In this document: piece after piece, positions 7,001 through 63,090 of the stretch
Numbering within the stretch: the stretch's first letter is position 1
Layout: each line of letters begins with the position of its first letter
Assembly (NCBI GenBank): GCA_963712665.1
Contig: CAVQIV010000022.1
Location: 279,215-343,214, forward strand
Origin: Thermoanaerobaculaceae bacterium
GTDB lineage: Bacteria; Acidobacteriota; Thermoanaerobaculia; Multivoradales; UBA5704
Length of the DNA: 64,000 nt
Reading direction: 5' to 3'
The notes under the pieces: generated by a model
What the model saw: the letters and a program-made list of their open reading frames with translations, nothing else
Databases searched by the model: none
Told to the model about the DNA's origin: nothing
Made by a program: the position numbers and the translations under genes

Positions 7001-7104
7001 GCGAAGTCCGCGTACTGGAGATTGAGCTCAGGGAGTGGCGAGAGGGCATCCTTGCCCATCGCGCCGAACGTGCCATAGAGCGCCGCCAGCTCGGCCAGGA
7101 ACAC
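3808..7104 (-). CDS. NRPS module 10: C domain (C-terminal part), A domain, PCP, and N-terminal part of the next C domain
   Basis: [19 protein letters not shown] (core ~5725), SNVSFDAATFEIW, HVYGPTESTTF, YRTGDLVR and [20 protein letters not shown] form the A domain. [10 protein letters not shown] is the PCP core, and [19 protein letters not shown] starts the next C domain. The frame is lost near 7.1-7.3 kb and near 3.8-4.0 kb. Confidence 0.85.
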   Translation of the reverse strand: MFLAELAALYGTFGAMGKDALSPLPELNLQYADFAVWQRQWLQGEALERQLDYWRRALDGAPPVLDLPIDRPRPAVRSARGAHRSFALSPGLAAEVSGLARREGTTLFAALLAGFQVLLARWSGQEDVVVGSPVANRNRLETEPLIGFFVNTLVLRLDLAGDPGFRGALRRVREAVLGASEHQDLPFEKLVEELAPARDGRSTPLFQVLFALQNAAPGTLRFPGLAMEPVETESGLAKFDLLLAIAEAGEGLSATFEYSVDLFEAATIERLADRFNGLLQSVVADPERRVSELPVLSAAERRQVLLTWNETATGYPRNTTLPELFAFWAGRTPAAEALRFGAEVLTYGELDARSNQLACHLQSLGVAPGGLVGVCLERSPELVVTLLAVVKAGAAYLPLDPAYPAERRAWMLEDAGASAVVTRESLEADAGRIASLDGDEPVRQGSTDSLAYVMYTSGSTGRPKGIAIPQRAIVRLLFATDYVELGPADRIAHLSNVSFDAATFEIWGALLHGGCLVGIARDVALSPRELAAELGRQRISAMFLTTALFNQVAREAPEGFRGLRHLLFGGEACDPRWVREVLAKGAPERLLHVYGPTESTTFALWHRVESVPEGAATVPIGRPLANTTAYVLDRRLQPAVPGAPGELFLGGDGLADGYWRRPELTAERFVPNPFARSAAEAGSRLYRTGDLVRHRPDGSVEFMGRADHQVKIRGFRIEPGEIEAALATHPAVREAVVVARENGPGGRRLVAYVASTETSARELRAFLAERLPDYMVPAAFVVLPALPLTPNGKVDRRALPDPEAPAGDAGAYVAPRDREEEILAGLWSEVLGVPRVGAHDDFFELGGHSLLATQLVSRVRQAFGREVALAALFERPTVAGLAGLLRPEDQPAAVWLQAPRIVAAPRTGELPLSFAQERLWFLDQLEPGGSAYNVPAPVRLRGRLDRAALAASLREVVRRHEALRTTFPEVEGRPVQHVAPAPALALPVVDLADLPAAARDGEVRRLVLQDARRPFDLARGPLLRTALAAVRRRRCRAAAQPASHRGRRLVDRGAGERARGALHRRPGGPAVAPTRAARAVWGLRPLAARVAPGRGPGG

Positions 7105-10100
7105 CCCGATCGACCAGCCGTCCGAGGCGATGTGGTGGAAGGTGACGAGCAGGACAGTGCTCCAGGGCTCCCAGGCGCAGCAGCGTCACCCGCAGCATCC
7201 ACGGCGGGCTCGCCTCGCTGGCTGCCAGCGCGAAGGCCCGTGTGGCCTCCTCCTGGGCCAGCCGCCGCGCAACAGTGTCACGGGTAGCGGCCGGCAGCGC
7301 CGATAGGTCGATGGCCGGCAAGGGCCGTGGCCGCCAGGGAGCGATCACCTGCACGGGGCGACGGTTGCGCCCCTCGGCGAAGCCGGTGCGCAGCACCTCG
7401 TGCCGGCGCACGATCTCGCCGATGGCAGCCTCCAGAGCCGCGGTGGCGAGGCGCCCCCGCAGACGCACGGCGCCCGGCATGTTGTAGAGGGCGCTGCCCG
7501 GCTCCAGTCGGTCGAGGAACCAGAGCCGCTCCTGGGCGAAGGAGAGCGGCAGCTCGACGTCCACAGGCAGCGGCCGGGGCAGCGGCACGAGCGGCGGAGC
7601 CGCCAGCCTCGGCGCGGGCTGGACGGCGGCCGGCGCCATCGTGGCCGCAGCCAGGGGCTCGCCCAGCTCCGCCGCCAGCTCTTCGATCGTCGGCGCCTCG
7701 AACAGCCGGCGGATCGGCAGCTCGACACCGAAGGCCGCGCGGGCACGGGAGACGACCTGAGTGGCCAACAGCGAGTGGCCGCCCAGCTCGAAGAAGCTGT
7801 CGCGCACGCCCACCTGCTCGAGCCCCAGCACCTCGGCCCAGATCTGCGCCAGCGCCGCCTCGGCGGCGTTGCGGGGCAGGACCCGCTCGCGCGCCCCTTG
7901 CTGAGCGGGATCGGGCGCGGGCAGGGCTGCCTGGTCGAGCTTGCCGTTGGCGTTGAGCGGCAGCGACTCCATGACCACGAAAGCCGACGGCACCATGTAC
8001 TCCGGCAGCTTCTGCTTGAGGAAGGCGCGCAGCTCGCCGAGCGTCTCCTCACCCTGCTCTTCGAGCACCACGTAAGCCACCAGACGCCTGCCTTCCCGCG
8101 CCGCCGGCGCCACCACGGCCGCGTCGCGCACGGCCGGATGGCTCGCCAGCACCGTGTCGATCTCCCCCAGCTCGACCCGGAAGCCGCGGATCTTCACCTG
8201 GGTGTCGATCCTGCCGTGGTACTCGATCTGCCCGTCGGCGAGATAGCGCGCCGAGTCGCCCGTTCGATAGAGCCGCGCTCCCGGCTCCGCGGCGTACGGA
8301 TCGGGCACCATCTTCTGCGCCGTCAGCACGGGGTCGTTCAGATACCCCCGGGGCACGCAGGCGCCCGCCGCGTACAGCTCGCCCGGCACGCCCACGGGCA
8401 CCGGCTCCAGGTGCGCGTCGAGCAGGTGGATGCGCACGTTGACGATCGGCCGGCCGATCGACGGGATGGCCGGCCAACTCCCCGGTACGCCGGCCAGCGT
8501 CAGGGCGCTCACCACGTGGGTTTCGGAGGCGCCGTACTGGTTGTGCAGCGAGCAGCCGGGCAGGCGCTCGAACAGCAACCGCACCGTGGGGTTGACCTGG
8601 AGCTGCTCGCCCGCGGTGATCACCTCGCGCAGGCGGGAGGGGAGCCGATCCTGCTCCGCCGCCGCCTCGGCCAGGTGCTTCAGGGCCGCAAACGGCAGGT
8701 GCAGCCGCTCGATCTCCTGAGCCTCCAGGAAGGCGTTGAGCCCCACGACGTCGCGCCGCACCATCTCGCTCGCCAGGACCAGGGTGCCGCCCGAGCACCA
8801 GGAGGAGAACACCTCCTGGAACGAGACGCAGAAGCCGAAGGTGGCGAACTGCACCGTGCGCGCCACCCCCGAGAGCGATGAGCGCCGGAGCTGCCAGTCG
8901 AGGAGGTTGGCGAAGGCCCGGTGGGTGACCAGGATCCCCTTGGGCATTCCCGTGGAGCCCGAGGTGTAGATGGCGTAGATCGGATTGTCGAGCTCGACGC
9001 CGCTCGCCGGATCCTCGCCGCTCTCGCCCGGGAACGGCTCGGTGTCTCCTTCCAGCAGGATGGCGATCGCCTCCTGGCCCGGGAAGTGGCGCAGCAGCGA
9101 CTCCTGGGTGATCAGCGCCCGCAACCTGGCATCCTGGATGATGAAGGCCAGGCGGTCCACCGGGTAGGCTGGGTCGAGGGCCACCATCCCACCGCCCGCC
9201 TTGAGCACCGCCAGCATCGACACCAGCATGCCCAGCGAGCGCTCCAGGCAGATACCCACCAGCGACTCGGGACCGACCCCGCGCCGGCGCAGGCCGTGCG
9301 CCATGCGATTGGCGCGCCGGTTCAGCTCCTCGTAGGTGAGGCCATGACCCTCGAACACCGCCGCTACGGTCGCAGGCGAGCGCCGGACCTGCTCCTCCAC
9401 CCAGCGGTGGACGCAGGAGGTCGCTCCTGCCACGACGTCCGTGCCGTTCCACTCCACCAGCACCTGGTGGCGTTCGGCGGGCGAAAGCAGCGGCAGGGCC
9501 GTGAACGGCCGGTCCGGCGCGGCGACCGCCCCGCGCAGCAGCGCCTCGTAGTGTCGCGACAGGCGCCGCGCCGTGGCCGGATCGAAGAGGTCGGTGTTGA
9601 ACTCGACGAGCCCCAGGAGCCGCCCCTCGCTCTCGTGCCAGAAGACGGTCAGGTCGAACTTGGCCGTGGCGGTGTCGACCGCGAGCGGGCGCACCACGAG
9701 ACCTTCGATCCCGGCCGCGGCCTGCGGCTGGTTCTGGAGCACGCACATCACCTGGAAGAGCGGATTGCGGCTCATGTCCCGCTCGGGCTGGATCTCCCCC
9801 ACCAGCTTCTCGAACGGCAGCTCCTGGTGGGCGTAGGCCTCCAGCGCCACCTCGCGCACCCGCCGCAGCAGGGGCTGGAAGCCCGGATCACCCGCGAGAT
9901 CCGTGCGCAGCACCAGGGTGTTGGCGAAGAAGCCGATCAGCCCTTCCACCTCGGCGCGGTTGCGGTTGGCGATGGGCGAGCCCACCGGCACGTCCACCTG
10001 GCGGGTGAGCCGGGAGAGCAGGGCCTGGAACCCCGCCAGCAGCGTCATGAACAGGGTGGCGCCCTGGCCGCGGGAGAGGGCGTGAAGAGCCGCGGTCAGC

Positions 10101-12664
10101 TCGCCGTCGAGATCGAGCCGGAGGTGTGCACCGCGGAAGGTCTCCACCGGCGGCCGCGGCCGGTCGAGAGGGAGGTCGAGCCCCGCAATCCCCGCGAGCT
10201 GCCGCCGCCAGTAGGCGAGCTCGGCGGCCTGCACCTCGCCCTGCAGCCAGCTCCGCTGCCACACGGCGTAGTCGGCGTACTGGATGGGCAGCGGCGGCAG
10301 CGGCGAGGGCCGGCCGGCCGCGAACGCCTCGTAGAGGGCCACCACCTCCCGTAGCAGCACCTGGCTCGACCAGCCGTCGGAGACGATGTGGTGGAGGTTG
10401 AACAGCAGCGCGTGCCGCTCGGGCTTCAGCCTTACCAGGGCGAAGCGGACGAGAGGTCCACGCGCGAGGTCGAACGGCCGGCGGGCGTCCCCGGTGGCGA
10501 GCTCGCCCAGGGTCCGCTCGCGCTCGGCCGGCGGCAGCACGGCCAGGTCCACCAGCGGCAGCTTCACCTCCGGATGGGGCGCGATCGCCTGGAACGGGCG
10601 CCCATCGCGATCGCCGAAGATGGTGCGTAGCGCCTCGTGCCGTTCCACGATCTCGCGCAGCACCGCCGCCAGCACCGGCACCGCCAAAGGGCCTTCCAGG
10701 AGGACGGCGGCGGGCATGCTGTAGAAGGCGGTGCCCGGCTCGAGCTGCTCCAAGAACCAAAGCCGCTCCTGGGCGAACGAGAGGGGCAGGCCGGCCGCGC
10801 CCGGGGCAGGCCGCGGCACGGGGACCAGGGGCGGCGCCACGGCACGGCCGGCGCGAGCCACGGCCAGGGCCAGCCCGGCCACCGTGGGGCTCTCGAACAG
10901 GGCCCGCAGCGGCACCTCGCGGCCGAAGACCTGGCGCACCTGAGAGATGAGCTGGGTGCCCAGCAGCGAGTGCCCTCCCAACGCGAAGAAGTCATCGCAG
11001 ATCCCCACCCGATCGAGCGCCAGGACCTGGGCGAAGATCCCGGCTAGCAGCTCCTCCTCGGCCGTGCGGGGCGCTACGGAATCCGCCTCCCCGGCCTGGA
11101 CCACAGGCGCCGGCAGAGCGCGGCGGTCCACCTTGCCGTTGGGGGTGAGCGGCAGCGCCGGCAGCTCCATCCACAGCGAGGGCAGCATGTACTCCGGCAG
11201 ACGCGACCGCAGGTGCTCGCGCAGCTCGTCCGGGAAGGCGAGGGGGACCGCTGGGCGCCGCGCCACGTAGGCCACCAGACGGAGGTCGCCCGGCACGATC
11301 TCGCGCGCCACGACCGCGACGGATTCGACCGCCGGATGGCCCGCCAGCACGGCCTCGACCTCCCCCAGCTCGATGCGGAAGCCCCGCACCTTGACCTGGT
11401 GATCGGCACGGCCCAGGAATTCTATGTCTCCCGGGCTCCCCGGCCGGCCCGTGGACCAGCGCGCGAGATCGCCCGTGCGATAGAGGCGAGCCCCAGGGAT
11501 GGCCGCGAAGGGATCGGGGACGAACCGCTCGGCCGTCAGGTCGGGGCGGCCGAAATAGCCCCGTGCGAGGCCCGCTCCCCCCAGACACAGCTCGCCGGGA
11601 ACGCCGACCGGCACGGGCCGCAGACCCCGGTCGAGCACCAAAGCCCGGCTGTTGGGCAGCGGCCTCCCGATGGTGGGCTCGCCCGGTCCCTCCCCCACCT
11701 CCAGCTCCGTGGAGTAGGTGGTGTCCTCTGACGGACCGTAGAGGTTGAGGACCCGTCCCACCGTGCCCAGCGTCCGGACGCGATCGACCAGGGACCGCCG
11801 CAGCGCCTCTCCCGCCAGGTTGACCGTGCGCACCGAGGCCGGCACCGCTCCCAGCCGCAGCAGCTCCGCCATGGCCGAGGGGACGGTGTTGATCAGCGTC
11901 ACCTCGCCCCGCGCCGGCAGCTCCGGCAGGGCCAGGGCGTTGTCCGCCAGGATCACGGTGCCGCCCCAGGAGAGCGGTGCGAACAGCTCGAAGACCGAGA
12001 GGTCGAAGCAGACCGAGGTGGCGGCCAGCGCCCCCGCCAGCTCTCCGGCCGAAAACGTCTGCCGCGCCCAGTGCATCAGCTCCACGGCGCTCTGGTGCGT
12101 GATGGCCACCCCCTTGGGCCGGCCCGTGGAGCCCGAGGTGTAGATCACGTACGCCAGGCGGGAGGGATCGGGCCGCGGCAGGTCCCTCACCTCTCTCACC
12201 GGCTCGTCATGGTCCGCCAGAACGATCCGTGCGCTGTCGAAAGGCAGGAGATCGGCGAGTGCTGCGTCCGTCACCACCACCGGGGCCGCGGAGTCGTCGA
12301 GGATCGCGGCCAGGCGCTCGCGCGGGTAGGCTGGATCGAGCGGCACGTAGGCGCCGCCGGCCGCGAGGGTGCCCAGCAGTGCCGCCACCAAGCGCGGCGC
12401 GCGCGGGAGCAGGATGGCCACCGGCACCTCCGGGCCCACTCCCGCGGCCCGCAGCCGTTGCGCCAGCCGGCTCGCCTGCCGCCTCAGCTCGCGGTAGGTG
12501 ACCCGCTCCTCGCCAGAGATCAAGGCTACGGCCTCCGGGCTCAGCGCGGCCTGCGCCGCGAAGAGCTCGTGGAGCATGGACTCGCGGCGATCGGCGATCT
12601 CTCCCCTACCAGCGGCCAGCACCTGAGAGAGCTCCGCCTCGCCGAGGAGGGGCAGGTCTCCCAC
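7028..12664 (-). CDS. NRPS modules 8 and 9: A(DltA-like)-PCP-C-A-PCP-C(N-terminal part), an intact 1878-aa frame
   Basis: The A8 core is [21 protein letters not shown] (~12125), with [17 protein letters not shown]...[10 protein letters not shown]...[14 protein letters not shown]. The A9 core is [21 protein letters not shown] (~8950), with [13 protein letters not shown] and [11 protein letters not shown]. There are two GGHSLL PCP cores and [10 protein letters not shown] domains. Confidence 0.9.
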
Positions 12665-16180: not shown

Positions 16181-30406
<14,226 letters not shown>

Positions 30407-53168: not shown

Positions 53169-54053
53169 TCACCCTCCAGTGAGCCGCAGATCGGCCCGAT
53201 GGGGATAACGAGACGAGCCCTCGAATCCCCTCGAGTTGGGGCCGGAGGGCTGCACCGGCAGATACTCGATTGGAATCCACTCGTCCATTCCCTCGACCCA
53301 ATAGTGCGTGTCCTGGGCGAGTTGACCCGATCTCCGCAGGCGCTGGACCTCAGCCATCGGGTAGGGGCCGTACGTCTCGCCTCCCGTCGAGAGGAAAATA
53401 ACGGCAACGGCGCTCGCGGCTGAGGGTTGCTCAGGCGTCTCCGGACCCGTCGCAAAGCGAGGAGCTGAGCCTGGCTCTGGCGCTTCTTGATGGGCTTCGT
53501 CTGACTTCTTGTAACTCTTCTTCGCGTCTTTCACGATTTCCCGGATGGCTGCCTTGTCTTTGAGGACGTCGTGGGCCGCGTCCTTCAAGTCGGCTTCAGT
53601 GATCTGATCAGCGGATTTTGCGCGCAGCAATCTGGTTAAGGCTTTCATATAGACGATGCCCGCGGCAATCGTGAGCGCGTAGATCGTCGTGGCCATCACC
53701 GCGATACCGCCCACGGTTCCTAACCCGGGAAGAAGCTTTATGGCACTTGCGCCGACGACGAGAGCGGCCGCTCCGGCCGCTACGTTGGTCATGACTCCAG
53801 CGGCCAGACTCTTGACGACGTTCTCGCTGAACGGCAGGTTGAGCTCCTTGTTGATGCGTACGTACATGGCCCAGGTGTTGGCGCCGGCGGCGGCAATGTC
53901 TGCGCCCGGGATTGGAATGAATGCGCTCCCAACGGCCAATTTGGCATGGAGCTTCACAATGCCCGCGAGCTTCTGTGGCAGATATTCGTCCACCGCCTTG
54001 TCGAGCTCCTTCGCCAGCTCGCCGGCTGCTTTGATGAGATGTCCTTCTTCCAT
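53169..54053 (-). CDS. Membrane protein with a C-terminal DUF4339 (GYF-like) domain
   Basis: The ATG is at 54053..54051 (MEEGHLIKAAGELAKEL). There are two hydrophobic helices (AFIPIPGADIAAAGANTWAMYVRI; LPGLGTVGGIAVMATTIYALTIAAGIVYM). The C-terminal domain is GETYGPYPMAEVQRLRRSGQLAQDTHYWVEGMDEWIPIEYL. The stop lies one nt from the DoxX-like start. Confidence 0.6.
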   Translation of the reverse strand: MEEGHLIKAAGELAKELDKAVDEYLPQKLAGIVKLHAKLAVGSAFIPIPGADIAAAGANTWAMYVRINKELNLPFSENVVKSLAAGVMTNVAAGAAALVVGASAIKLLPGLGTVGGIAVMATTIYALTIAAGIVYMKALTRLLRAKSADQITEADLKDAAHDVLKDKAAIREIVKDAKKSYKKSDEAHQEAPEPGSAPRFATGPETPEQPSAASAVAVIFLSTGGETYGPYPMAEVQRLRRSGQLAQDTHYWVEGMDEWIPIEYLPVQPSGPNSRGFEGSSRYPHRADLRLTGG

Positions 54054-54418
54054 AGATTCATCCCTCGTCGTTCTCCGACGCTTCAACTCCCGATCGCATC
54101 GTCTATCCCAAGATAGCACGCAGACGTCGACGAATCTACCTCGGAACCGGCTGGCTCCGCTTTGCGGGGTACTTGGGGCGAAATCACTCCGCCAGCCGTA
54201 GTGTACAGATTCGCCCGCCCCCGCCCTGCCTATCAAGTTGATGACTTGCATTTTTCGCAGACAGATACGCCATCTTCTGCGCTAATCTCCTCCCTGATAT
54301 CTATCGCTTCCGCCAGATCTCTCGCCGTAAATGAGCCCAGTACCTCCGGAAGCAGCGCCAGCAAATCTGTCGGCTGTCGAAGATCCTCTGTTCTACGACT
54401 TCCAGCAATCTACGTTCT

Positions 54419-54869
54419 TCAGTAACCCATCCTTTCCTGCGCCATCTCCGCTTCCCTTCGTACCGTCTCGCCTCTTCTTTCCTTTTCATCAGCACTTCCA
54501 GGGAGAAGTTGGGGTTTCGACGACAACTGCGGGAAGCTCACCAGCTCCAAGAACAGGTCCTCCACGCGCCCAGTCTTAGGCGACTTGCGGCGCGTGACGC
54601 AACGACTACCTTCCTGCGCCAGCTTGACGATCCACTTCTCCTGTGCAATCGGATAGATCAATCGTATGGGATGGGAAAGCACCAGGTTTGTCAGCTTCGC
54701 CTTGATCGATGCGAGATTGCGTGTCTGGATTTCCAGTAACAGACCATCTCGGACAATGATCGATCACAAACCCATCCACCACGGTTTCAAACTGATCCCC
54801 CGGTTGTGCGCACCACATTTTCAGCGATGCGTGAAGTGGCTTTTCATTCAGCAGACCGATGCCTGACAT
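54419..54869 (-). pseudogene. Decayed hypothetical gene in a lower-GC patch (two overlapping frames 54606..54869 and 54419..54682)
   Basis: The ATG is at 54869. MSGIGLLNEKPLHASLKMWCAQPGDQFETVVDGFVIDH continues after a one-nt frame change as ...LLLEIQTRNLASIKAKLTNLVLSHPIRLIYPIAQEKWIVKLAQEG.... The family is not recognised. Confidence 0.35.
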
Positions 54870-54893
54870 CTTCGTCTTGCGCGCCTGCGAGGG

Positions 54894-55301
54894 CTAGACT
54901 GGTCGCCCGAAGTACAGAACGTACCCGTCCGCATCCATGACTTCGAACCCGCGCAGTTGGTCCGAGTTGTTGCCCAGAGGCTCCCGGAACGAAACGCCAC
55001 GAGAGGTAAACTCTTCGGCCAGCGCGTCCGGATCAGGAGTATAGACGTACGCATCCCACCTGGCCCATGGATGCCGGCTGGGATTCGGCATCGGCTGCAC
55101 CTCAGGCGTAATGGCTTTGAGCATGAGCCGAACGCCGTCTCGCTTCAGCATGGCGAAATACGGGTCATCGTCGGGGCCGAGAAACGTCACTTCGAAGCCC
55201 AGACGATCTTTGTAGAACGCGATCGATGGCATGACGTCGCGAACGATGAAGAACGGGGCGACATAGCCAAGTTGTGTCTGCGTGGCGGTTGATGAAGTCA
55301 T
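54894..55301 (-). CDS. VOC-family (glyoxalase / bleomycin-resistance fold) protein
   Basis: The ATG is at 55301..55299 with GGAGA upstream. The protein reads MTSSTATQTQLGYVAPFFIVRDVMPSIAFYKDRLGFEV...GFEVMDADGYVLYFG. Confidence 0.7.
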   Translation of the reverse strand: MTSSTATQTQLGYVAPFFIVRDVMPSIAFYKDRLGFEVTFLGPDDDPYFAMLKRDGVRLMLKAITPEVQPMPNPSRHPWARWDAYVYTPDPDALAEEFTSRGVSFREPLGNNSDQLRGFEVMDADGYVLYFGRPV

Positions 55302-57545: not shown

Positions 57546-58052
57546 TCATTGTACAGCGGGCCGCGCTCTTCGGGAGTAGAGCGCCTCGTGGTGGGCCCTC
57601 CCCTTCCGCGCGAGTTGAATCTTGCCGATGATACTCAGCCGCCGGAGGGTGACCGCGGCGAGGCGCGCGTCGATGAGCCGCCCCAACTTCGCCGAGAACC
57701 GGCGGTTGACCTCGGCGGCGACCTGCGTGCCGGTGAACGTCTCTCCCACCGGCCAGGAGAGGGCGACGCGGGAGATGGCCCGGCTGATGAGCAGCTTGCG
57801 CCCTCCCAAGTCGGGCTCTTCAGGAGGTGGAGCCGGAGCGGACGGCGGAGCCGCAAACTCCGCGGCGGGAAGGGCCACCGTCTTGAACGCCTCCAGATGC
57901 TTGGCGACCGTCTCCGCCTCATGGGCGTGAGATTCCGCCTCCTCGCGATGAAACGTCTCCTGCTCCCGATGCAACGTCTCCTGCTCGCGGTGGAACGCCA
58001 GCCGCTTTTCGAGATTGGCCAATACTTCTGCAACAGAAATTTCCGTGCCCAT
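57546..58052 (-). CDS. Hypothetical coiled-coil protein with a HREQET repeat
   Basis: The ATG is at 58052..58050. The protein starts MGTEISVAEVLANLEKRLAFHREQETLHREQETFHREEAESHAHEAETVAKHLEAF. The upstream ~80 codons of the track ORF look non-coding. Confidence 0.45.
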   Translation of the reverse strand: MGTEISVAEVLANLEKRLAFHREQETLHREQETFHREEAESHAHEAETVAKHLEAFKTVALPAAEFAAPPSAPAPPPEEPDLGGRKLLISRAISRVALSWPVGETFTGTQVAAEVNRRFSAKLGRLIDARLAAVTLRRLSIIGKIQLARKGRAHHEALYSRRARPAVQ

Positions 58053-58299
58053 CTTCGCTCCTCTCACTCTGTTCCAACACCTGCCCACGCCGCCTCGCCT
58101 CGCCCGAAGCTGCGACAGAACCTTTCCCCGCACCTCCGCGCCAAGTCCCATCGAAGCGGCGGGAAAGATTCTGCAGCAACTCCCGTCCATGCCGCGACAA
58201 AGTCTATGGCCCGAGGCTGCCACAAACTCCCGCTGGTCTGCCTCCAAAGACAATGTCGCAGAATCGCCCGCCGCCGTCCCTCTTTGCGCCAATCCGTCT

Positions 58300-58830
58300 C
58301 AGAATCGGCTGATTTTGTAGCGTCTCGGGCTCAAGCCGTGACAATTTACTCCAAGTCAAGACAATCTGTCAAGACTCTGCTGCACATTCTCTACACTTCG
58401 CTCCGCCCTCTGTGGAAGCTGAGACATTCTCCAGCAATGCTGAAATATATCAAGGAGAAGGTGAGACAGCTCCGCAGACATCGCTGCATTCTCAGAAGAT
58501 TTCGCTACACTATCTCTCGATTCTGAGACATTCTATGCGAAGTCCGAAACGTTCTTCTCAGATTCATCTCAATCTCGGCAAAGGTTGAGACAGAGCAAGA
58601 ATATTGGGAACATCCTCTGGGGACTCTGCTGCATTGTCAATCGACAATGCAGCAGCATGCTTGGAGGCTGCTGCACAGCGGGTCACTCTGCGACATTTCT
58701 CTTGCAGGCCAATCAGCCGGGCTCAAGCGTTGAGACAAATGGGTTGGCGGCAGCGTGGTGTTCCGGGACGTTGCGACAGAAGCGAGCCACGCATCGACGC
58801 CACCGGCTTGGCCTTAGACTGTTGATCCGA
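58300..58830. promoter_or_regulatory. AT-rich, repeat-laden intergenic block with five TGAGACA copies, flanking GGGCTCAAGC direct repeats and a 13-bp perfect palindrome
   Basis: Local GC is clearly below the window average. TGAGACA occurs at 58429, 58471, 58533, 58595 and 58740. CGGGCTCAAGC occurs at 58335 and 58727. The palindrome is CTGCTGCATTGTC-AATC-GACAATGCAGCAG at 58635-58664. Confidence 0.5.
58627..58642 (+). promoter_or_regulatory. Sigma54-like -24/-12 element (TGGGGAC-N4-CTGCA), ~185 bp upstream of the HXXEE gene
   Basis: The sequence TGGGGACTCTGCTGCA has the GG and GC doublets spaced as in the TGGCAC-N5-TTGCA consensus. It overlaps the left arm of the 13-bp palindrome. Confidence 0.3.
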
Positions 58831-59330
58831 TGACTGAGGAGCTCCGCAGCATGCTGCTCGGCACAGCGGGCTTGAGCGTCGCCGCCGTGGTGGCTCTCGG
58901 TCTGACCCTCTCGCGAGGTGGAGTCGTCGGGGACGAAACGAAGCTTCGGGCCTCCATCCGGCTCGCCGTCCTCGCCGTTCTCCTCCAGGCAGCTCACTTC
59001 GCGGAAGAGTGGGCGACAGGATTCCACCAGCGCTTCCCGGAGCTCCTCGGCCTCAGCCCCTGGTCGATCCGCTTCTTCGTGACGTTCAACCTGGTCTGGA
59101 TCGCGATCTGGATCCTCAGTCTCTGGGGCCTGAAGGCACGCCGGCGGGTGGCCCTGTTCCCCCTCTGGTTCCTCGGGCTCGGCTGCGTGGCGAACGGTCT
59201 GGCTCACCCCCTCTTCGCGCTCCGCACGGGAGGCTACTTCCCGGGCCTCGTCACCTCGCCCCTCGTGGGGATCGTAGGGCTCCTGCTCCTGCGGCGCCTG
59301 TTCCGGATCACAACCTCGCCGTTGCCTTGA
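58830..59330 (+). CDS. HXXEE-domain membrane protein
   Basis: The ATG is at 58830. The HFAEEW motif lies inside a multi-TM protein (MTEELRSMLLGTAGLSVAAVVALGL...LQAAHFAEEWATGFHQRFPELLGLSPWSIRFFVTFNLVWIAIWIL). Confidence 0.65.
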   Translation: MTEELRSMLLGTAGLSVAAVVALGLTLSRGGVVGDETKLRASIRLAVLAVLLQAAHFAEEWATGFHQRFPELLGLSPWSIRFFVTFNLVWIAIWILSLWGLKARRRVALFPLWFLGLGCVANGLAHPLFALRTGGYFPGLVTSPLVGIVGLLLLRRLFRITTSPLP

Positions 59331-59390: not shown

Positions 59391-59465
59391 GCCGACGTAG
59401 CTCAGTGGTAGAGCAGCTGATTCGTAATCAGCAGGTCGTCGGTTCAAATCCGACCGTCGGCTCCA
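59391..59465 (+). tRNA. tRNA-Thr (anticodon CGU), with CCA encoded
   Basis: The acceptor stem is GCCGACG/CGTCGGC. The D arm is GCTC-AGTGGTA-GAGC. The anticodon arm is GCTGA-TTCGTAA-TCAGC, with U33, anticodon CGT and A37. The variable loop is AGGTC, the T arm is GTCGG-TTCAAAT-CCGAC, the discriminator is T, and CCA is at 59463-59465. Confidence 0.9.
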
Positions 59466-61162: not shown

Positions 61163-61426
61163 ATGGTGTCCGGCCCGTTTGGGATCTTCCGGGGAGACGG
61201 CCGGGGCGTGGGCGAGCCCGGCTGTTCCCGCTACTCCCTGGTCCATCGCCCAACGCGGCGGGTTGTCGCCACGCTCCCCCTGCGGAAGTCCTGTATGGCG
61301 CTCGCGGCGGAGCTGGCGGGCCTGCAAATCGACTGGCGGGAGATCGATCCGCAGAAGGTGCTCGGCGCGGCTCCTGACCGGGGAAAGGCGCAAGCGCTTA
61401 TCCGGCTCTTTGAGAAGCTCACCTAA
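61163..61426 (+). CDS. Hypothetical small protein E (87 aa)
   Basis: The ATG is at 61163 with GGGAGG upstream, ten nt after the stop of D. The C-terminal half (SLVHRPTRRVVATLPLRKSCMALAAELAGLQIDWREIDPQKV) looks protein-like. A hairpin with a T-run follows. Confidence 0.45.
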   Translation: MVSGPFGIFRGDGRGVGEPGCSRYSLVHRPTRRVVATLPLRKSCMALAAELAGLQIDWREIDPQKVLGAAPDRGKAQALIRLFEKLT

Positions 61427-61440
61427 GACGTAGGAAGTGT

Positions 61441-61483
61441 GGGGCCGGTTCCGAGAGAGGGCCGGCCTTGCGTTTTTGTCTTG
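61441..61483 (+). terminator. GC-rich hairpin (repeat copy 1) plus T-run; a terminator-like element after ORF E
   Basis: The hairpin GGGGCCGGTTCCGAGAGAGGGCCGGCC is followed by TTGCGTTTTTGTCTTG. Confidence 0.55.
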
Positions 61484-61517
61484 CACCTCTGTCCACCACA
61501 CAAAGCCCGAGACCTAC

Positions 61518-61733
61518 TCAACCGAGCTGCGGGAGTCCGGCGTTCTTACGGTATTCGGCGACTTGGTCGAGAGTAAAGGAGACATCTCCGTTACCGCACC
61601 CGTGATAGTCGATGAATTGATCCGGAATTAGATCCTCTATCCGAATTTCGATAGTCTTGCCACACCCGCACTTGTAGTCCAATGCTCGCTTAGCCCAATT
61701 GAAAACAATGCCTTCCTTGAAGGTTCTGTCCAT
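61518..61733 (-). CDS. Small Cys-rich hypothetical protein (71 aa) bracketed by two identical hairpin repeats
   Basis: The ATG is at 61733..61731 with GGGAGG upstream. The translation is MDRTFKEGIVFNWAKRALDYKCGCGKTIEIRIEDLIPDQFIDYHGCGNGDVSFTLDQVAEYRKNAGLPQLG, with a possible C-x-C...H-x-C metal site. Local GC is below the window average. Confidence 0.5.
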   Translation of the reverse strand: MDRTFKEGIVFNWAKRALDYKCGCGKTIEIRIEDLIPDQFIDYHGCGNGDVSFTLDQVAEYRKNAGLPQLG

Positions 61734-61753
61734 CCGCTAAATCCTCCCTTTGG

Positions 61754-61780
61754 GGGGCCGGTTCCGAGAGAGGGCCGGCC
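61754..61780. repeat. Second identical copy of the 27-nt GC-rich hairpin repeat (copy 1 at 61441-61467)
   Basis: GGGGCCGGTTCCGAGAGAGGGCCGGCC is identical over 27 nt to 61441-61467. It lies between the 71-aa ORF start and the 3' end of the protease gene. Confidence 0.8.
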
Positions 61781-61821
61781 CTTTCGCTTCTGGTGTCCAT
61801 GGAGTTCACCCGTATTGGGGG

Positions 61822-62784
61822 TTAATCGAGTATAGCCGCGCCGAGATTTTCCCAAGATTCCCGCTCGCGTCGCCTCTGTTCGACCAGTTCAGGTTGATTT
61901 AACACCTCAAGTATTTTCCATGCGGGGGCGACGCACTGCATCCCGGCATTGACGCACACTTCTAACTTCACTCCGTCTGCCGTCGTCGCATTAAGAGTAA
62001 CAGGTAAGTGTCCCCAGTTGACCCCGAGCAGCCAAATGTTGCCAATAGTCTCTACTACAGACTGCCGCTTGAGATCGTTGCCTTCTGAGTGTTCTAATTC
62101 CCACTTCGGAACGTAGAGAAATACCGGGGACCCGCTGTAACCAGCCACCGAGTATGCCTCGATCAGGAAGTCTTCAAGATTTAAAATTGTGTCGTTGGGC
62201 TGTTTCGACCTAATGGGCTCCAGCGGCATCATTGACAAATAGCCGAAACGCAAGCTCGGCATATTACGCTGGACACCTTCATGATTCACAAACCGCCCGA
62301 CCGTAAACGTCTGATCGCCAGGACCGACTCCAAGCTCAGCCACCATTTCCTGAGTCAAAAGCATCTCTATGCCTATGCCTACGTGTTGGTCGGTATAGCG
62401 GCTTAGTGGTGGAATCGGACAGACCGACACCTCATCTAGATTAGGGTGGTCTACCCACAAACCGCTGTTTAAATCCATAATCCTATGGCCGCCTGCCGTC
62501 GTATTGATTCGAACTATTCTTGTTCCCCGGGAAACGTGGCGGTTGGTAACTATGTAGAAATGAACGCCTTTGCAGTGGCGGGGTTGCGCCGCATGCGCCG
62601 CCGCGTAGACCTCAGGAGATGCGAGCCGGTCATCCAGCGAAGGCGGACTGACTTCATCCTGGCCGTAGCTAGGTACGCCGAGAAGAAAGCCGCTGCCGCC
62701 GTATCTTTGGCCCTCTTCGGCGTCTTTGCGGTTCTGATAAAGGTACACCGAGCTTTCTAGGATGGAGCGGCGAATACGTGGCAT
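61822..62784 (-). CDS. Trypsin-fold (DegP/HtrA-like catalytic domain) serine peptidase without PDZ domains
   Basis: GGSGFLLGV...HFYIVTNRHV matches the HtrA GSGF...TNxHV His region. GYSGSPVFLY matches the GNSGGPL Ser region. The protein is 320 aa, and the gene body has noticeably lower GC than the window. Confidence 0.6.
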   Translation of the reverse strand: MPRIRRSILESSVYLYQNRKDAEEGQRYGGSGFLLGVPSYGQDEVSPPSLDDRLASPEVYAAAHAAQPRHCKGVHFYIVTNRHVSRGTRIVRINTTAGGHRIMDLNSGLWVDHPNLDEVSVCPIPPLSRYTDQHVGIGIEMLLTQEMVAELGVGPGDQTFTVGRFVNHEGVQRNMPSLRFGYLSMMPLEPIRSKQPNDTILNLEDFLIEAYSVAGYSGSPVFLYVPKWELEHSEGNDLKRQSVVETIGNIWLLGVNWGHLPVTLNATTADGVKLEVCVNAGMQCVAPAWKILEVLNQPELVEQRRRERESWENLGAAILD

Positions 62785-63090
62785 CCTTAGTAGCTCCCTG
62801 GTCCACAGTTAGTACGGCTGGCCATCGGGGTAAGAATACATCGTCTTCAGGCGCAAGCCGCACGGCAGACCGCACCGCGGGATGATAGTCCCACATACCG
62901 GGGGAGGATGACGCCCCCCTCGAATTATGGCTGCACGCTTATTTGCCGAGCACGCCGGTAAGCGGGAGACCCGCCGGAAAGATCGGAGGCCCCCCCTACC
63001 GCGGTTCGTCGCCGCGCCTCCCGGAGCGCCACCATCCGGGACGCCCGCGAGGTCATAGAAGCCCGGCCCGCCCTGGTGTCCACGCCCATT

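Follow-up and report, generated by a model that had tools for sequence, protein, structure and literature searches.

A phased array of putative DNA-binding sites upstream of a gene for a predicted winged-helix protein in Acidobacteriota

Introduction

Long arrays of phased sites that are bound by the product of a neighbouring gene are known from plasmids, where iterons and partition centromeres count copies or build segregation complexes. Iterons are direct repeats of ~17-22 bp, set about two helical turns apart in one orientation beside the gene of a winged-helix protein, and in iteron plasmids (pPS10 RepA, R6K pi, RK2 TrfA) inverted copies near the promoter serve autorepression. In the partition systems parC/ParR (type II; R1, pSK41) and tubC/TubR (type III), tandem direct repeats lie directly upstream of a small-protein gene, with a promoter embedded in or beside the array, and the protein covers the array in a helical or filamentous complex while repressing transcription of its own gene. 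In Rok of Bacillus subtilis, a helix for oligomerisation at the N-terminus is joined by a flexible linker to a winged-helix DNA-binding domain at the C-terminus. The repeat arrays of type III toxin-antitoxin loci consist of 2-5.5 units of 34-46 nt, with a promoter upstream and a terminator before the toxin gene. For the Omega repressor of pSM19035, seven to ten consecutive short iterons overlap the promoters; affinity is set by the number of iterons, and the protein binds direct and inverted units equivalently and forms a helix around the DNA (PMC5016525). The DNA binding of Rok and the architecture shared by bridging proteins are the subject of two papers (PMC6212790, PMC6936261).

Here we analysed a 64-kb window, a stretch of 64,000 nt from a Thermoanaerobaculaceae bacterium, in which an AT-rich repeat block accompanies a minus-strand gene (57546-58052) for a 168-aa protein. 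No description of this gene-plus-array module was found in the literature, and searches for tandem repeats in Acidobacteria or Thermoanaerobaculia and for chromosomal winged-helix systems resembling iterons returned nothing relevant. The module resembles iterons in its direct repeats, its period of about two turns (20.7 nt in the window; 19, 20 and 21 nt in relatives) and its place beside a gene, whereas it differs from Rep/iteron systems in its 168-aa protein, which has one winged-helix domain and shows no homology to Rep, in its occurrence off plasmids and in its far greater number of units. Origin function is unlikely because several copies occur per chromosome.

The module shares with parC/ParR and tubC/TubR the tandem direct repeats directly upstream of a small-protein gene and a promoter in or beside the array; coating of the array with repression of the gene's own transcription is a predicted likeness. 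However, neither a motor gene (ParM, TubZ) nor another conserved partner was present at ~90 loci, the protein has no sequence match to the ParR or TubR family, and the module is chromosomal and absent from plasmid and phage collections. Its arrays are also much longer (15-32 units) than parC or tubC, and its protein carries a long histidine-striped N-terminal helix. Omega is a ribbon-helix-helix protein acting on contiguous 7-bp units, whereas the module pairs a winged helix with units of 19-21 bp, each an 8-11-nt core plus spacer.

By predicted architecture only (AlphaFold2), the 168-aa protein matches the domain plan of H-NS/Rok, and the putative target DNA is likewise AT-richer than the genome, but the sequences are unrelated. 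The targets of Rok and H-NS are scattered AT-rich regions, and neither gene is accompanied by a phased array of its own, whereas in the module recognition seems specific in sequence, with private sites for each paralogue. A tandem repeat array that directly precedes a gene for a ~170-aa protein, in the same orientation, is also found in type III toxin-antitoxin loci (ToxIN, CptIN, TenpIN). They differ from the module, which has 15-32 units of 19-21 nt, a promoter between array and gene and no terminator; the 168-aa protein has no ToxN, PADLOC or Pfam match that would place it with ToxN/AbiQ, CptN or TenpN, and is predicted to fold as a helix plus a winged helix.

Results

A degenerate 20.7-nt lattice upstream of the gene

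The GC content was 70.8% in the window, 51.8% at 58300-58830 and 48.2% at 58330-58700, which bears out the drop described in the initial annotation; only two comparably GC-poor stretches lie elsewhere in the 64 kb. That annotation had counted five TGAGACA repeats in the block. The count was right, but each coordinate was 9 too high, as the copies start at 58420, 58462, 58524, 58586 and 58731. All TGAGACA copies in the window are on the plus strand within 58420-58737. Five copies in 64 kb, against 3.6 expected, are not above chance; the probability that all five fall in 318 nt on a single strand is about 2e-10 (hand calculation). The longer unit CTGAGACATTCT exists in two copies rather than the three proposed (GAGACATTCT at 58421 and 58525), and a third ACATTCT, at 58384, is preceded by CTGCTGC.

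Read on the gene strand, TGAGACA is TGTCTCA, and the five copies (58420-58737, minus strand) are the clearest units of a degenerate phased array at 58111-58778 on the minus strand. The array comprises 33 slots on a 20.7-nt lattice (centres at 58775 - 20.7n), with the minus-strand cores TGTCGCA, TGTCTCA or TGCAGCA; the TGTCTCA centres at 58423, 58465, 58527, 58589 and 58734 correspond to slots 17, 15, 12, 9 and 2. A core with at most one mismatch was present in 18 of the 33 slots (14 of them perfect), compared with 2 of 33 on a lattice shifted by half a period. Results of the Rayleigh test gave R = 0.80 at 20.7 nt, against a null maximum of 0.76 in 2000 trials (p < 5e-4), and motif-free autocorrelation peaked at lags of 21, 41/42, 62, 83, 104 and 124 (z up to 8.9). 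Tandem Repeats Finder did not detect the array, which is too degenerate for it, and returned only a 21-nt repeat in the coding sequence; the periodicity is therefore shown by the autocorrelation and lattice tests. The window copy is an eroded variant: only about half of its slots can still be recognised, and where the family normally has the core TTCACCGCAAC, this copy has come to carry TGTC(G/T)CA or TGCAGCA.

Several features of the region fall on this lattice. The palindrome TGCTGCATTGTCAATCGACAATGCAGCA (58627-58654; 12-nt arms, 4-nt loop), which is kept in the related locus L001, consists of two units in inverted orientation in the adjacent slots 6 and 7. Two units of opposite orientation lie on the plus strand at 58254-58301, namely TGTCGCA at 58254-58260 (slot 25) and CGTCTCA at 58295-58301 (slot 23). 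The gene-proximal unit TTCTGTCGCAGCTTC (58111-58117, minus strand), 65 nt before the ATG, is kept in L001 and L006. The direct repeats that had been read as the termini of an inserted segment are real: CGGGCTCAAGCCGTGA (58326-58341, plus strand), an array unit plus spacer, and CGGGCTCAAGCGTTGA (58718-58733, plus strand), in phase with the first, form a 16-nt repeat of 88% identity with CGGGCTCAAGC at 58326 and 58718. Because their distance of 392 nt equals 19 x 20.6 nt, they are two in-phase array units and not the ends of an insertion.

The block held no protein-like ORF, in agreement with the initial annotation. Nineteen stop-to-stop ORFs of at least 30 aa were checked as hidden genes and rejected. 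They matched L001 only and did so equally in all six frames, which indicates conservation at the nucleotide level; frame-specific conservation was absent in more distant relatives.

The adjacent gene and its product

The 168-aa protein was modelled by AlphaFold2 (pLDDT 85) as a helix at residues 7-66, a disordered Pro-rich linker of low model confidence at 67-88 and a confidently predicted winged helix-turn-helix domain at 89-160. Histidines at positions 21, 28, 35 and 42 place one His per seven residues on the long helix. Structural matches of the winged-helix domain were generic and weak (best E = 0.012) and included the RNA-contacting ribosomal protein eS25. Within the family, which comprises 456 clusters at 50% identity, the region of the recognition helix is highly conserved, with R130, L136, R137 and R138 invariant or nearly so, though the cores differ.

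The protein had no match in Pfam, PADLOC or PHROGs, and NCBIfam returned a chance-level hit only (E = 0.024, 12.9 bits against a cut-off of 482). Sequence and profile searches of the PDB gave nothing, and a tblastn search of 72,556 plasmids and 50,697 phages was without a hit.

The coding sequence has a 21-nt tandem repeat of its own (57938-57997, minus strand), which encodes the heptads (F/L)HREQET. Its first heptad, TTCCACCGCGAG, resembles the commonest array core of the family, TTCACCGCAAC/GAC; the His repeat opens with TT(C)CACCGCGAG, which is almost that core. In 13 of 49 loci the heptad start is the gene's best match to the array model of its own locus.

Array and gene across Acidobacteriota

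Related loci were searched with the 22 closest sequences, as the full alignment of 75 family sequences was too divergent for this purpose. We obtained ~90 loci from Acidobacteriota assemblies, the named ones belonging to Thermoanaerobaculia and Holophagales. The contigs that hold them are chromosomal and reach 7.7 Mb, with 2-3 or more paralogous copies per genome. Their neighbouring genes differ, none being common to more than 5 of the ~90. An upstream array with a period of 19, 20 or 21 nt and up to 32 units was found in roughly 60 of 73 loci, and about a dozen relatives were without a clear array. Arrays of relatives have 15-32 units of 19-21 bp (8-11-nt core plus spacer), within which the cores are conserved and the spacers variable. 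L001, L004 and L006 each have an orthologue of the window's block ahead of the same gene.

In the upstream 700 nt, CACCGCAA occurred 214 times on the gene strand against 0.6 expected. Inverted cores occurred 24 times, also against 0.6 expected (about 40-fold enrichment), and in the 19- and 20-nt arrays the centre offset was exactly 0 modulo the period for 31 of 43 inverted cores. Core and period tracked the protein clades. Within one assembly, close paralogues (82-91% identical) had the same core and period, whereas distant ones (40-57%) had different ones. A scan of viral contigs for CACCGCAA-N12-CACCGCAA gave 54 single matches of the chance type and zero arrays.

Promoters and RNA-level signals

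Of 73 loci, 32 have an extended -10 element (TGnTAnnnT) in the 150 nt that precede the ATG (~2 expected), after which come one or two more units and then the Shine-Dalgarno sequence. This placement puts most of the array upstream of the promoter and an operator-like unit just past the start site. The window and its closest relatives are without this element, and the only consensus promoter of the window sits inside the array. It is a candidate sigma-70-type promoter at 58343-58372 on the minus strand (TTGACA, 18-nt spacer, TAAATT; 10 of 12 positions, a consensus match only), whose TCTTGAC block is conserved in L001, L004 and L006. Promoter-like sites numbered 3 in the region against 0.4 expected. 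If used, the candidate promoter would produce a leader of ~280 nt carrying the proximal units, and the proximal units of the window may thus be transcribed. At many loci the Shine-Dalgarno sequence directly adjoins the last unit, and no terminator-like site was found between array and gene in the window region.

A sigma-54 -24/-12 promoter (TGGCAC-N5-TTGCA) was absent from both strands of 58001-58880 at up to 3 mismatches with GG and GC fixed. The initial suggestion of an enhancer with iterated activator sites came nearest to the data in that the sites are iterated, helically phased and of the protein-binding type; nothing favours activation over repression, and the sigma-54 promoter was lacking.

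On the whole window at gathering score, the one Rfam covariance-model match was the tRNA, and eight related loci gave only a group II intron fragment in L017. Rfam searches of the region with E up to 10 yielded eukaryotic miRNA and lncRNA noise far below threshold. Compared with shuffled sequences, the folding energy had z = -6.5 for the gene strand and -4.9 for its complement. The symmetric inverted units account for this better-than-shuffled folding, which is therefore not evidence of a structured RNA. The proposal of a small RNA gene is not supported: no Rfam match was found, both strands fold beyond shuffles, and the promoter in relatives lies downstream of most of the array. A riboswitch likewise lacks support.

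Discussion

We consider it probable that the array is a set of phased sites on double-stranded DNA, iteron- or centromere-like, for the adjacent protein, with predicted cooperative autoregulation. The lattice, the linkage to the gene at ~90 loci, the co-divergence of core and period with the protein, the in-register flips and the promoter position in relatives are observed; we infer the adjacent protein as the binder, its mode of assembly and the physiological output. The period close to two turns of B-DNA and the enriched, in-register inverted units point to double-stranded DNA rather than RNA, and the differing cores and periods among distant paralogues of one genome argue against a common host factor. 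Co-divergence of core and protein is also expected from shared ancestry alone.

In the proposed mechanism, the winged-helix domain would read one core per unit on double-stranded DNA, and the long histidine-striped helix would bridge neighbouring protomers, giving cooperative loading on one face of the DNA and a nucleoprotein filament. Such a filament would span the region upstream of the gene's own promoter and just downstream of it. The minimum outcome would be steep autoregulation or titration of the protein, and a further structural role, as a barrier or a centromere-like complex, is possible. We counted the near-invariant recognition helix, found despite differing cores, against the adjacent protein as binder. 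The contact of the last unit with the Shine-Dalgarno sequence, which also fits control at the RNA level, was counted against a DNA-based model. The weak structural matches with eS25 among them, the missing -10 element of the window and its closest relatives, and the dozen or so relatives without a clear array likewise speak against the preferred reading.

The array could instead be a phased platform for another factor, such as a protein of replication, segregation or chromosome organisation, and the small gene a passenger under its regulation or an accessory. DNA-level sites are what the lattice, the inverted units in register and the position of the promoter show, without naming the binder, and the recognition helix hardly varies while the cores do. 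We regard this as possible but unlikely, since a second conserved gene beside the array was absent at ~90 loci, distant paralogous modules differ in core and period so that a separate factor would be needed for each, and the adjacent paralogue is the sole component that varies in step with the array.

That the array acts as RNA is a distinctly doubtful reading. A gene-strand transcript with repeated single-stranded motifs would then serve as a sponge, an antitoxin-like partner or a translation-controlling leader, comparable to the repeats of type III toxin-antitoxin systems or to CsrB-type sponges. Consistent with this, the units are biased to the gene strand (214 versus 24), the array is co-oriented with and upstream of a protein gene, its last unit often touches the Shine-Dalgarno sequence, the window's only consensus promoter would place ~280 nt of array in the leader, and eS25 is among the winged-helix matches. 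However, in 32 of 73 loci most of the array precedes the promoter, a terminator between array and gene is lacking, and inverted units, which would be meaningless for an RNA motif, are enriched and exactly in register. The periods also cluster at two DNA turns, Rfam matches are lacking, the folding excess is on both strands and hence not strand-specific, and the protein has no match to a defence or toxin family.

A neutral minisatellite, in which tandem copies arise by replication slippage near the 21-nt coding repeat and decay without function, is highly unlikely. The coding sequence does have its own 21-nt tandem repeat, whose first unit resembles the commonest array core, and the window copy is visibly decayed. 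Yet the array persists over a family of 456 clusters (50% identity) with ~90 loci examined, its cores are conserved while the spacers vary, and the lattice outlives sequence divergence. Slippage cannot yield in-register inverted units, and a conserved promoter and an operator-like unit come after the array.

The least probable reading by far takes the block for a mobile insertion of the MITE type or for what is left of an iteron-bearing plasmid replication origin. The edges do carry a 16-nt imperfect direct repeat, and iterons likewise have a two-turn period beside a winged-helix Rep gene, but the edge repeats are direct and in array phase (392 = 19 x 20.6), terminal inverted repeats are absent, 58326-58740 has no further copy in the 64-kb window and recurs among the fetched loci only at the orthologous position upstream of the same gene (L001, L004, L006), the homologous block follows the homologous gene into unrelated genomic contexts, the protein is without a Rep, Pfam, plasmid or phage match, and the loci are on chromosomal contigs that reach 7.7 Mb.

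With phased DNA sites for the adjacent protein as the preferred reading, the module is a design comparable to the plasmid arrays that stands alone, without a motor or replication gene. It is chromosomal and present in several copies per genome, each distinct from the others. It is spread over a large section of Acidobacteriota that is uncultured, and the protein family partnered with the array has no annotation. If the protein coats the array, these loci would provide natural orthogonal pairs of protein and site array with 19, 20 and 21 bp spacing for the study of how filament geometry depends on spacing, a first functional handle on a conserved family of unknown function, and a candidate for a new way of regulating or structuring chromosomes in a major phylum of soil bacteria.

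A bolder version, which we hold to be improbable, is an undescribed self-contained chromosomal filament system, in which the His-striped helix would polymerise on a private two-turn-spaced lattice of 0.4-0.7 kb, perhaps in response to metal or pH, and the array and the heptad repeat would possibly have originated together. With such a shared origin, the DNA lattice would continue into the coding sequence, and the periodicity of the protein and that of its binding sites would have been born from one tandem repeat.

The initial annotation had passed over the 20.7-nt lattice, its extension beyond 58300-58830 to 58111-58778 and the link to the minus-strand gene. For genome scanning, this case shows that an AT-rich block which looks isolated and holds a 7-mer five times may turn out to be the worn margin of an element found throughout a family, and that only relatives make this plain.

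Architecture of the repeat region

The AT-rich block at 58300-58830 lies within a divergent intergenic region of 776 bp (58053-58829). It is flanked on one side by a minus-strand gene (57546-58052) whose 168-aa product belongs to no Pfam family, and on the other by a gene on the plus strand (58830-59330) coding for a membrane protein of the HXXEE family, which is followed by tRNA-Thr(CGT) (59391-59465). A gene of the SulP/STAS sulfate permease family lies downstream of the 168-aa gene. The drop in GC reported in the initial annotation was real, with 51.8% at 58300-58830 and 48.2% in the core of the block (58330-58700) against 70.8% for the window. Its five copies of TGAGACA were also recovered, although each had been placed 9 nt too high: the whole-window motif scan located them at 58420, 58462, 58524, 58586, and 58731, all on the plus strand. 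Their number was ordinary (3.6 expected in the 64-kb window); the clustering of all five in 318 nt on one strand had a chance probability of roughly 2e-10 (hand calculation). The extended form GAGACATTCT, counted three times originally, was found twice.

On the minus strand TGAGACA reads TGTCTCA, and the core variants TGTCGCA and TGCAGCA occurred alongside it. When the 780 nt preceding the 168-aa gene were autocorrelated without reference to any motif, peaks appeared at lags of 21, 41/42, 62, 83, 104, and 124 (z up to 8.9). Nineteen core-like matches were phase-locked at 20.7 nt (Rayleigh R = 0.80; 2000 random sets reached 0.76 at most). When the lattice centres were set at 58775 - 20.7n, cores with one mismatch or none occupied 18 of the 33 slots (14 of them perfect), compared with only 2 of 33 on a lattice shifted by half a period. 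Judged by this occupancy, the array spans 58111-58778 and is wider than the block first described. Erosion has affected about half of the units, and the lattice has been kept despite this sequence decay. Five lattice units lie on the plus strand, including both halves of a palindrome, TGCTGCATTGTCAATCGACAATGCAGCA (58627-58654), that consists of two lattice units. The original observation is real, and it is structured beyond what was seen at first. Superperiods of 61-63 nt were also noted in the window and at L004, L006, and L054, three loci with relatives of the gene.

The array accompanies a gene family of Acidobacteriota

A word-indexed search returned 77 relatives of the 168-aa protein, and an exhaustive profile search matched 456 clusters at 50% identity, nearly all of about 165 aa. 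The named sources were all Acidobacteriota assemblies (Thermoanaerobaculia, Thermoanaerobaculaceae or Holophagales), often with two or three paralogues in one assembly. About 100 loci were retrieved for comparison, and upstream arrays were examined in 73 of them. The upstream region was GC-poor in most loci and periodic in roughly 60 of the 73; neighbouring genes varied, no neighbour family being present in more than five loci, and the HXXEE neighbour was not conserved. Many loci carried near-perfect tandem arrays (e.g., L035, L101, L017, L011, L016, L019, L043, L044, L048, and L053); those listed comprised 15-32 units at a 20-nt period, with a unit such as (A/C)TTCACCGCAAC(G)TA and an AT-rich spacer. 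Pooled over all loci, the 700 nt upstream held 214 copies of CACCGCAA (0.6 expected) and 24 inverted copies. In other clades the period was strictly 19 or 21 nt and the cores were different (TTTGCCGCAAC, TTGTCGCAAC, TGACGCAAC, TGAAGCA, AGCCGCAG, and CGGCCTGCC), and the differences in core and period tracked the protein tree. At L001, the closest relative of the window locus (89% protein identity), the neighbouring genes are different, and the cores have been retained along with the palindrome and the proximal unit. On these comparative grounds the array is assigned to the 168-aa gene, and the arrays of the relatives mark the block as an eroded member, with a drifted core, of a family-wide element.

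At L059, a higher-order 61-nt repeat was seen from -570 to -120, with every third unit inverted (cores at -508, -447, -386, -325, -264, and -203), pointing in some clades to a building block ordered forward-forward-reverse. Among the relatives listed, P0001 is an exact copy of the 168-aa protein and P0014 a paralogue with 62% identity; one contig of 367,203 bases carries both, so this genome probably holds at least two modules of gene plus array; P0014 was absent from the 64-kb window. A fragment of group II intron domains 1-4 (RF02005, 67.6 bits) was present on the minus strand of L017 at 1-220, about 2.8 kb upstream of the module, and is probably unrelated.

The units are predicted to be recognized as double-stranded DNA

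Four results, namely the period, the inverted units, the promoter position, and the negative RNA searches, point to recognition on double-stranded DNA rather than in a transcript. All periods were 19-21 nt, near two turns of B-DNA. Inverted cores were enriched about 40-fold and lay in register: measured from the nearest forward unit within strict arrays of 19- and 20-nt period, 31 of 43 had a centre offset of exactly 0 modulo the period, and most of the others had -1. Flipping a unit in place leaves a DNA site facing the same side of the helix; such an inversion cannot be a product of replication slippage and would be meaningless to an RNA motif. On the gene strand, 32 of the 73 loci (about 2 expected) had an extended -10 element, TGnTAnnnT (typically gcgTGCTATCCT), no more than 150 nt ahead of the ATG, and the element was found almost nowhere else. 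One or two more units (...CACCGCAACCTGG) and then a Shine-Dalgarno sequence followed it, a position that puts the bulk of the array upstream of the promoter and an operator-like unit just past the start site.

The small-RNA reading of the initial annotation was checked with Rfam covariance models, which had no match to the array in the window, at the block, or in eight related loci, and no terminator was found in the array region of the window. Folding exceeded that of shuffled sequences on both strands, as follows from the symmetric inverted units. TGnTAnnnT was missing from the window and its nearest relatives, where the sole consensus promoter, a candidate TTGACA-18-TAAATT on the minus strand (58372-58343), lies inside the array, so the leader may contain the proximal third of the window array. 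The last unit touched the Shine-Dalgarno sequence in many loci and may thereby add an effect at the RNA level. The distal end of the window array is about 50 nt from the HXXEE start codon, and its occupancy would probably also affect the divergent HXXEE promoter.

The initial interpretation was partly right: among the readings first offered, iterated protein sites survived as a prediction. A MITE with terminal repeats did not: the direct repeats said to bound the block are genuine (CGGGCTCAAGC at 58326 and at 58718, part of a 16-nt repeat with 88% identity), but their separation of 392 nt equals 19 lattice steps (392/20.6), making them simply two in-phase array units; the ends are not inverted, there is no other copy in the 64-kb window, and placement is orthologous with the gene. 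For a sigma-54 enhancer, no -24/-12 element was found at the region. A hidden ORF was rejected, in agreement with the initial annotation, since conservation of the block is spread over all six frames and is thus at the nucleotide level only. The likeness in layout to type III toxin-antitoxin loci is superficial, since neither the unit length nor the toxin family fits, nor does the placement of promoter and terminator.

The adjacent protein as candidate binder

The AlphaFold2 model of the 168-aa protein (mean pLDDT 85) comprised a long helix (residues 7-66), a proline-rich linker of low confidence (67-88), and a winged helix-turn-helix domain (89-160). Foldseek returned only generic winged-helix proteins with weak E-values (eS25, ZitR/MarR, PadR, Zur, replication terminator protein, Cdt1, and Orc1). 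Pfam, PHROGs, PADLOC, and PDB sequences gave no match, NCBIfam gave a chance-level match only, and the plasmid and phage collections held no homologue. In the family alignment His 28, 35, and 42 were invariant and His 21 nearly so; the four are spaced exactly seven residues apart, several with a glutamate four residues on, a pattern that could create a face sensitive to metal or pH.

Paralogues from the same assembly had core and period in common when closely related (82-91% identical) and differed when distant (40-57%); in DASWME, the core is CACCGCAAC with a 20-nt period at L031 and CGGCCTGCC with a 21-nt period at L027 and L028. Such paralogue-specific cores and periods rule out one shared host factor as the explanation. 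The adjacent protein is the only component that varied in step with the array, which is the main, if indirect, argument that it binds its own array; such co-divergence would partly be expected from shared ancestry alone. In the mechanism that we propose, the winged-helix domain would read a single core per unit, and neighbouring protomers would be coupled through the long helix. The protein would thus load cooperatively on one face of 0.4-0.7 kb of DNA, including the promoter-proximal unit, resulting in steep autoregulation or titration. Taken as a whole, we hold this mechanism to be somewhat better than an even bet. A larger structure, such as a barrier, anchor or centromere-like complex, may also form.

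Relation to known systems

In the proposed working, the closest systems are the parC/ParR and tubC/TubR plasmid partition centromeres, omega-protein iteron arrays (PMC5016525), and Rep iterons; in protein architecture, they are H-NS-type bridging proteins such as Rok (abstracts of PMC6212790 and PMC6936261). Unlike partition centromeres, the module has no motor gene, and the 168-aa protein has no homology to Rep, ParR, TubR or Rok. In contrast to plasmid systems, the module was found on neither plasmids nor phages in the collections searched. Its arrays are several-fold longer, and several orthogonal chromosomal copies occur per genome. The module thus belongs to none of the partition, omega, Rep-iteron or H-NS/Rok systems. 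The element is a chromosomal stand-alone array, iteron- or centromere-like, paired with an unannotated winged-helix family, and the databases and literature searched held no description of such a gene and array.

A possibly related repeat in the coding sequence and other features of the window

A 21-nt tandem repeat (57938-57997) in the 5' region of the minus-strand coding sequence of the 168-aa gene encodes the His heptads (F/L)HREQET, and was also present at +50..+70 of the genes in L011, L016, L021, L057, L070, and L092. Its first unit, TT(C)CACCGCGAG, is nearly identical to the commonest upstream array core of the family, TTCACCGCAAC/GAC; in 13 of 49 loci, nothing else in the coding sequence matched the array model of that locus better. 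As the 13 are homologous, they amount in essence to a single event (chance probability roughly 0.01). The heptad repeat and the array may have a common origin, or the lattice may reach into the gene.

Only two other stretches of the window were as GC-poor (50-55% vs 71%), and the 20-nt lattice was absent from both. One, at 53900-54900, is bordered by a gene for a GYF_2-domain protein and one for a member of the glyoxalase family; the other, at 61400-62800, covers a minus-strand ORF of 320 aa (61822-62784) with no Pfam match. An exact, hairpin-capable 25-nt repeat, GGCCGGTTCCGAGAGAGGGCCGGCC, at 61443-61467 and 61756-61780 (zero copies expected by chance) flanks a GC-poor minus-strand ORF of 71 aa (61518-61733), also with no Pfam match; the pair could be paired terminators or bound a small cassette. 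The ORF scan also showed very long minus-strand ORFs at 16181-30406 (4741 aa) and 7028-12664 (1878 aa).
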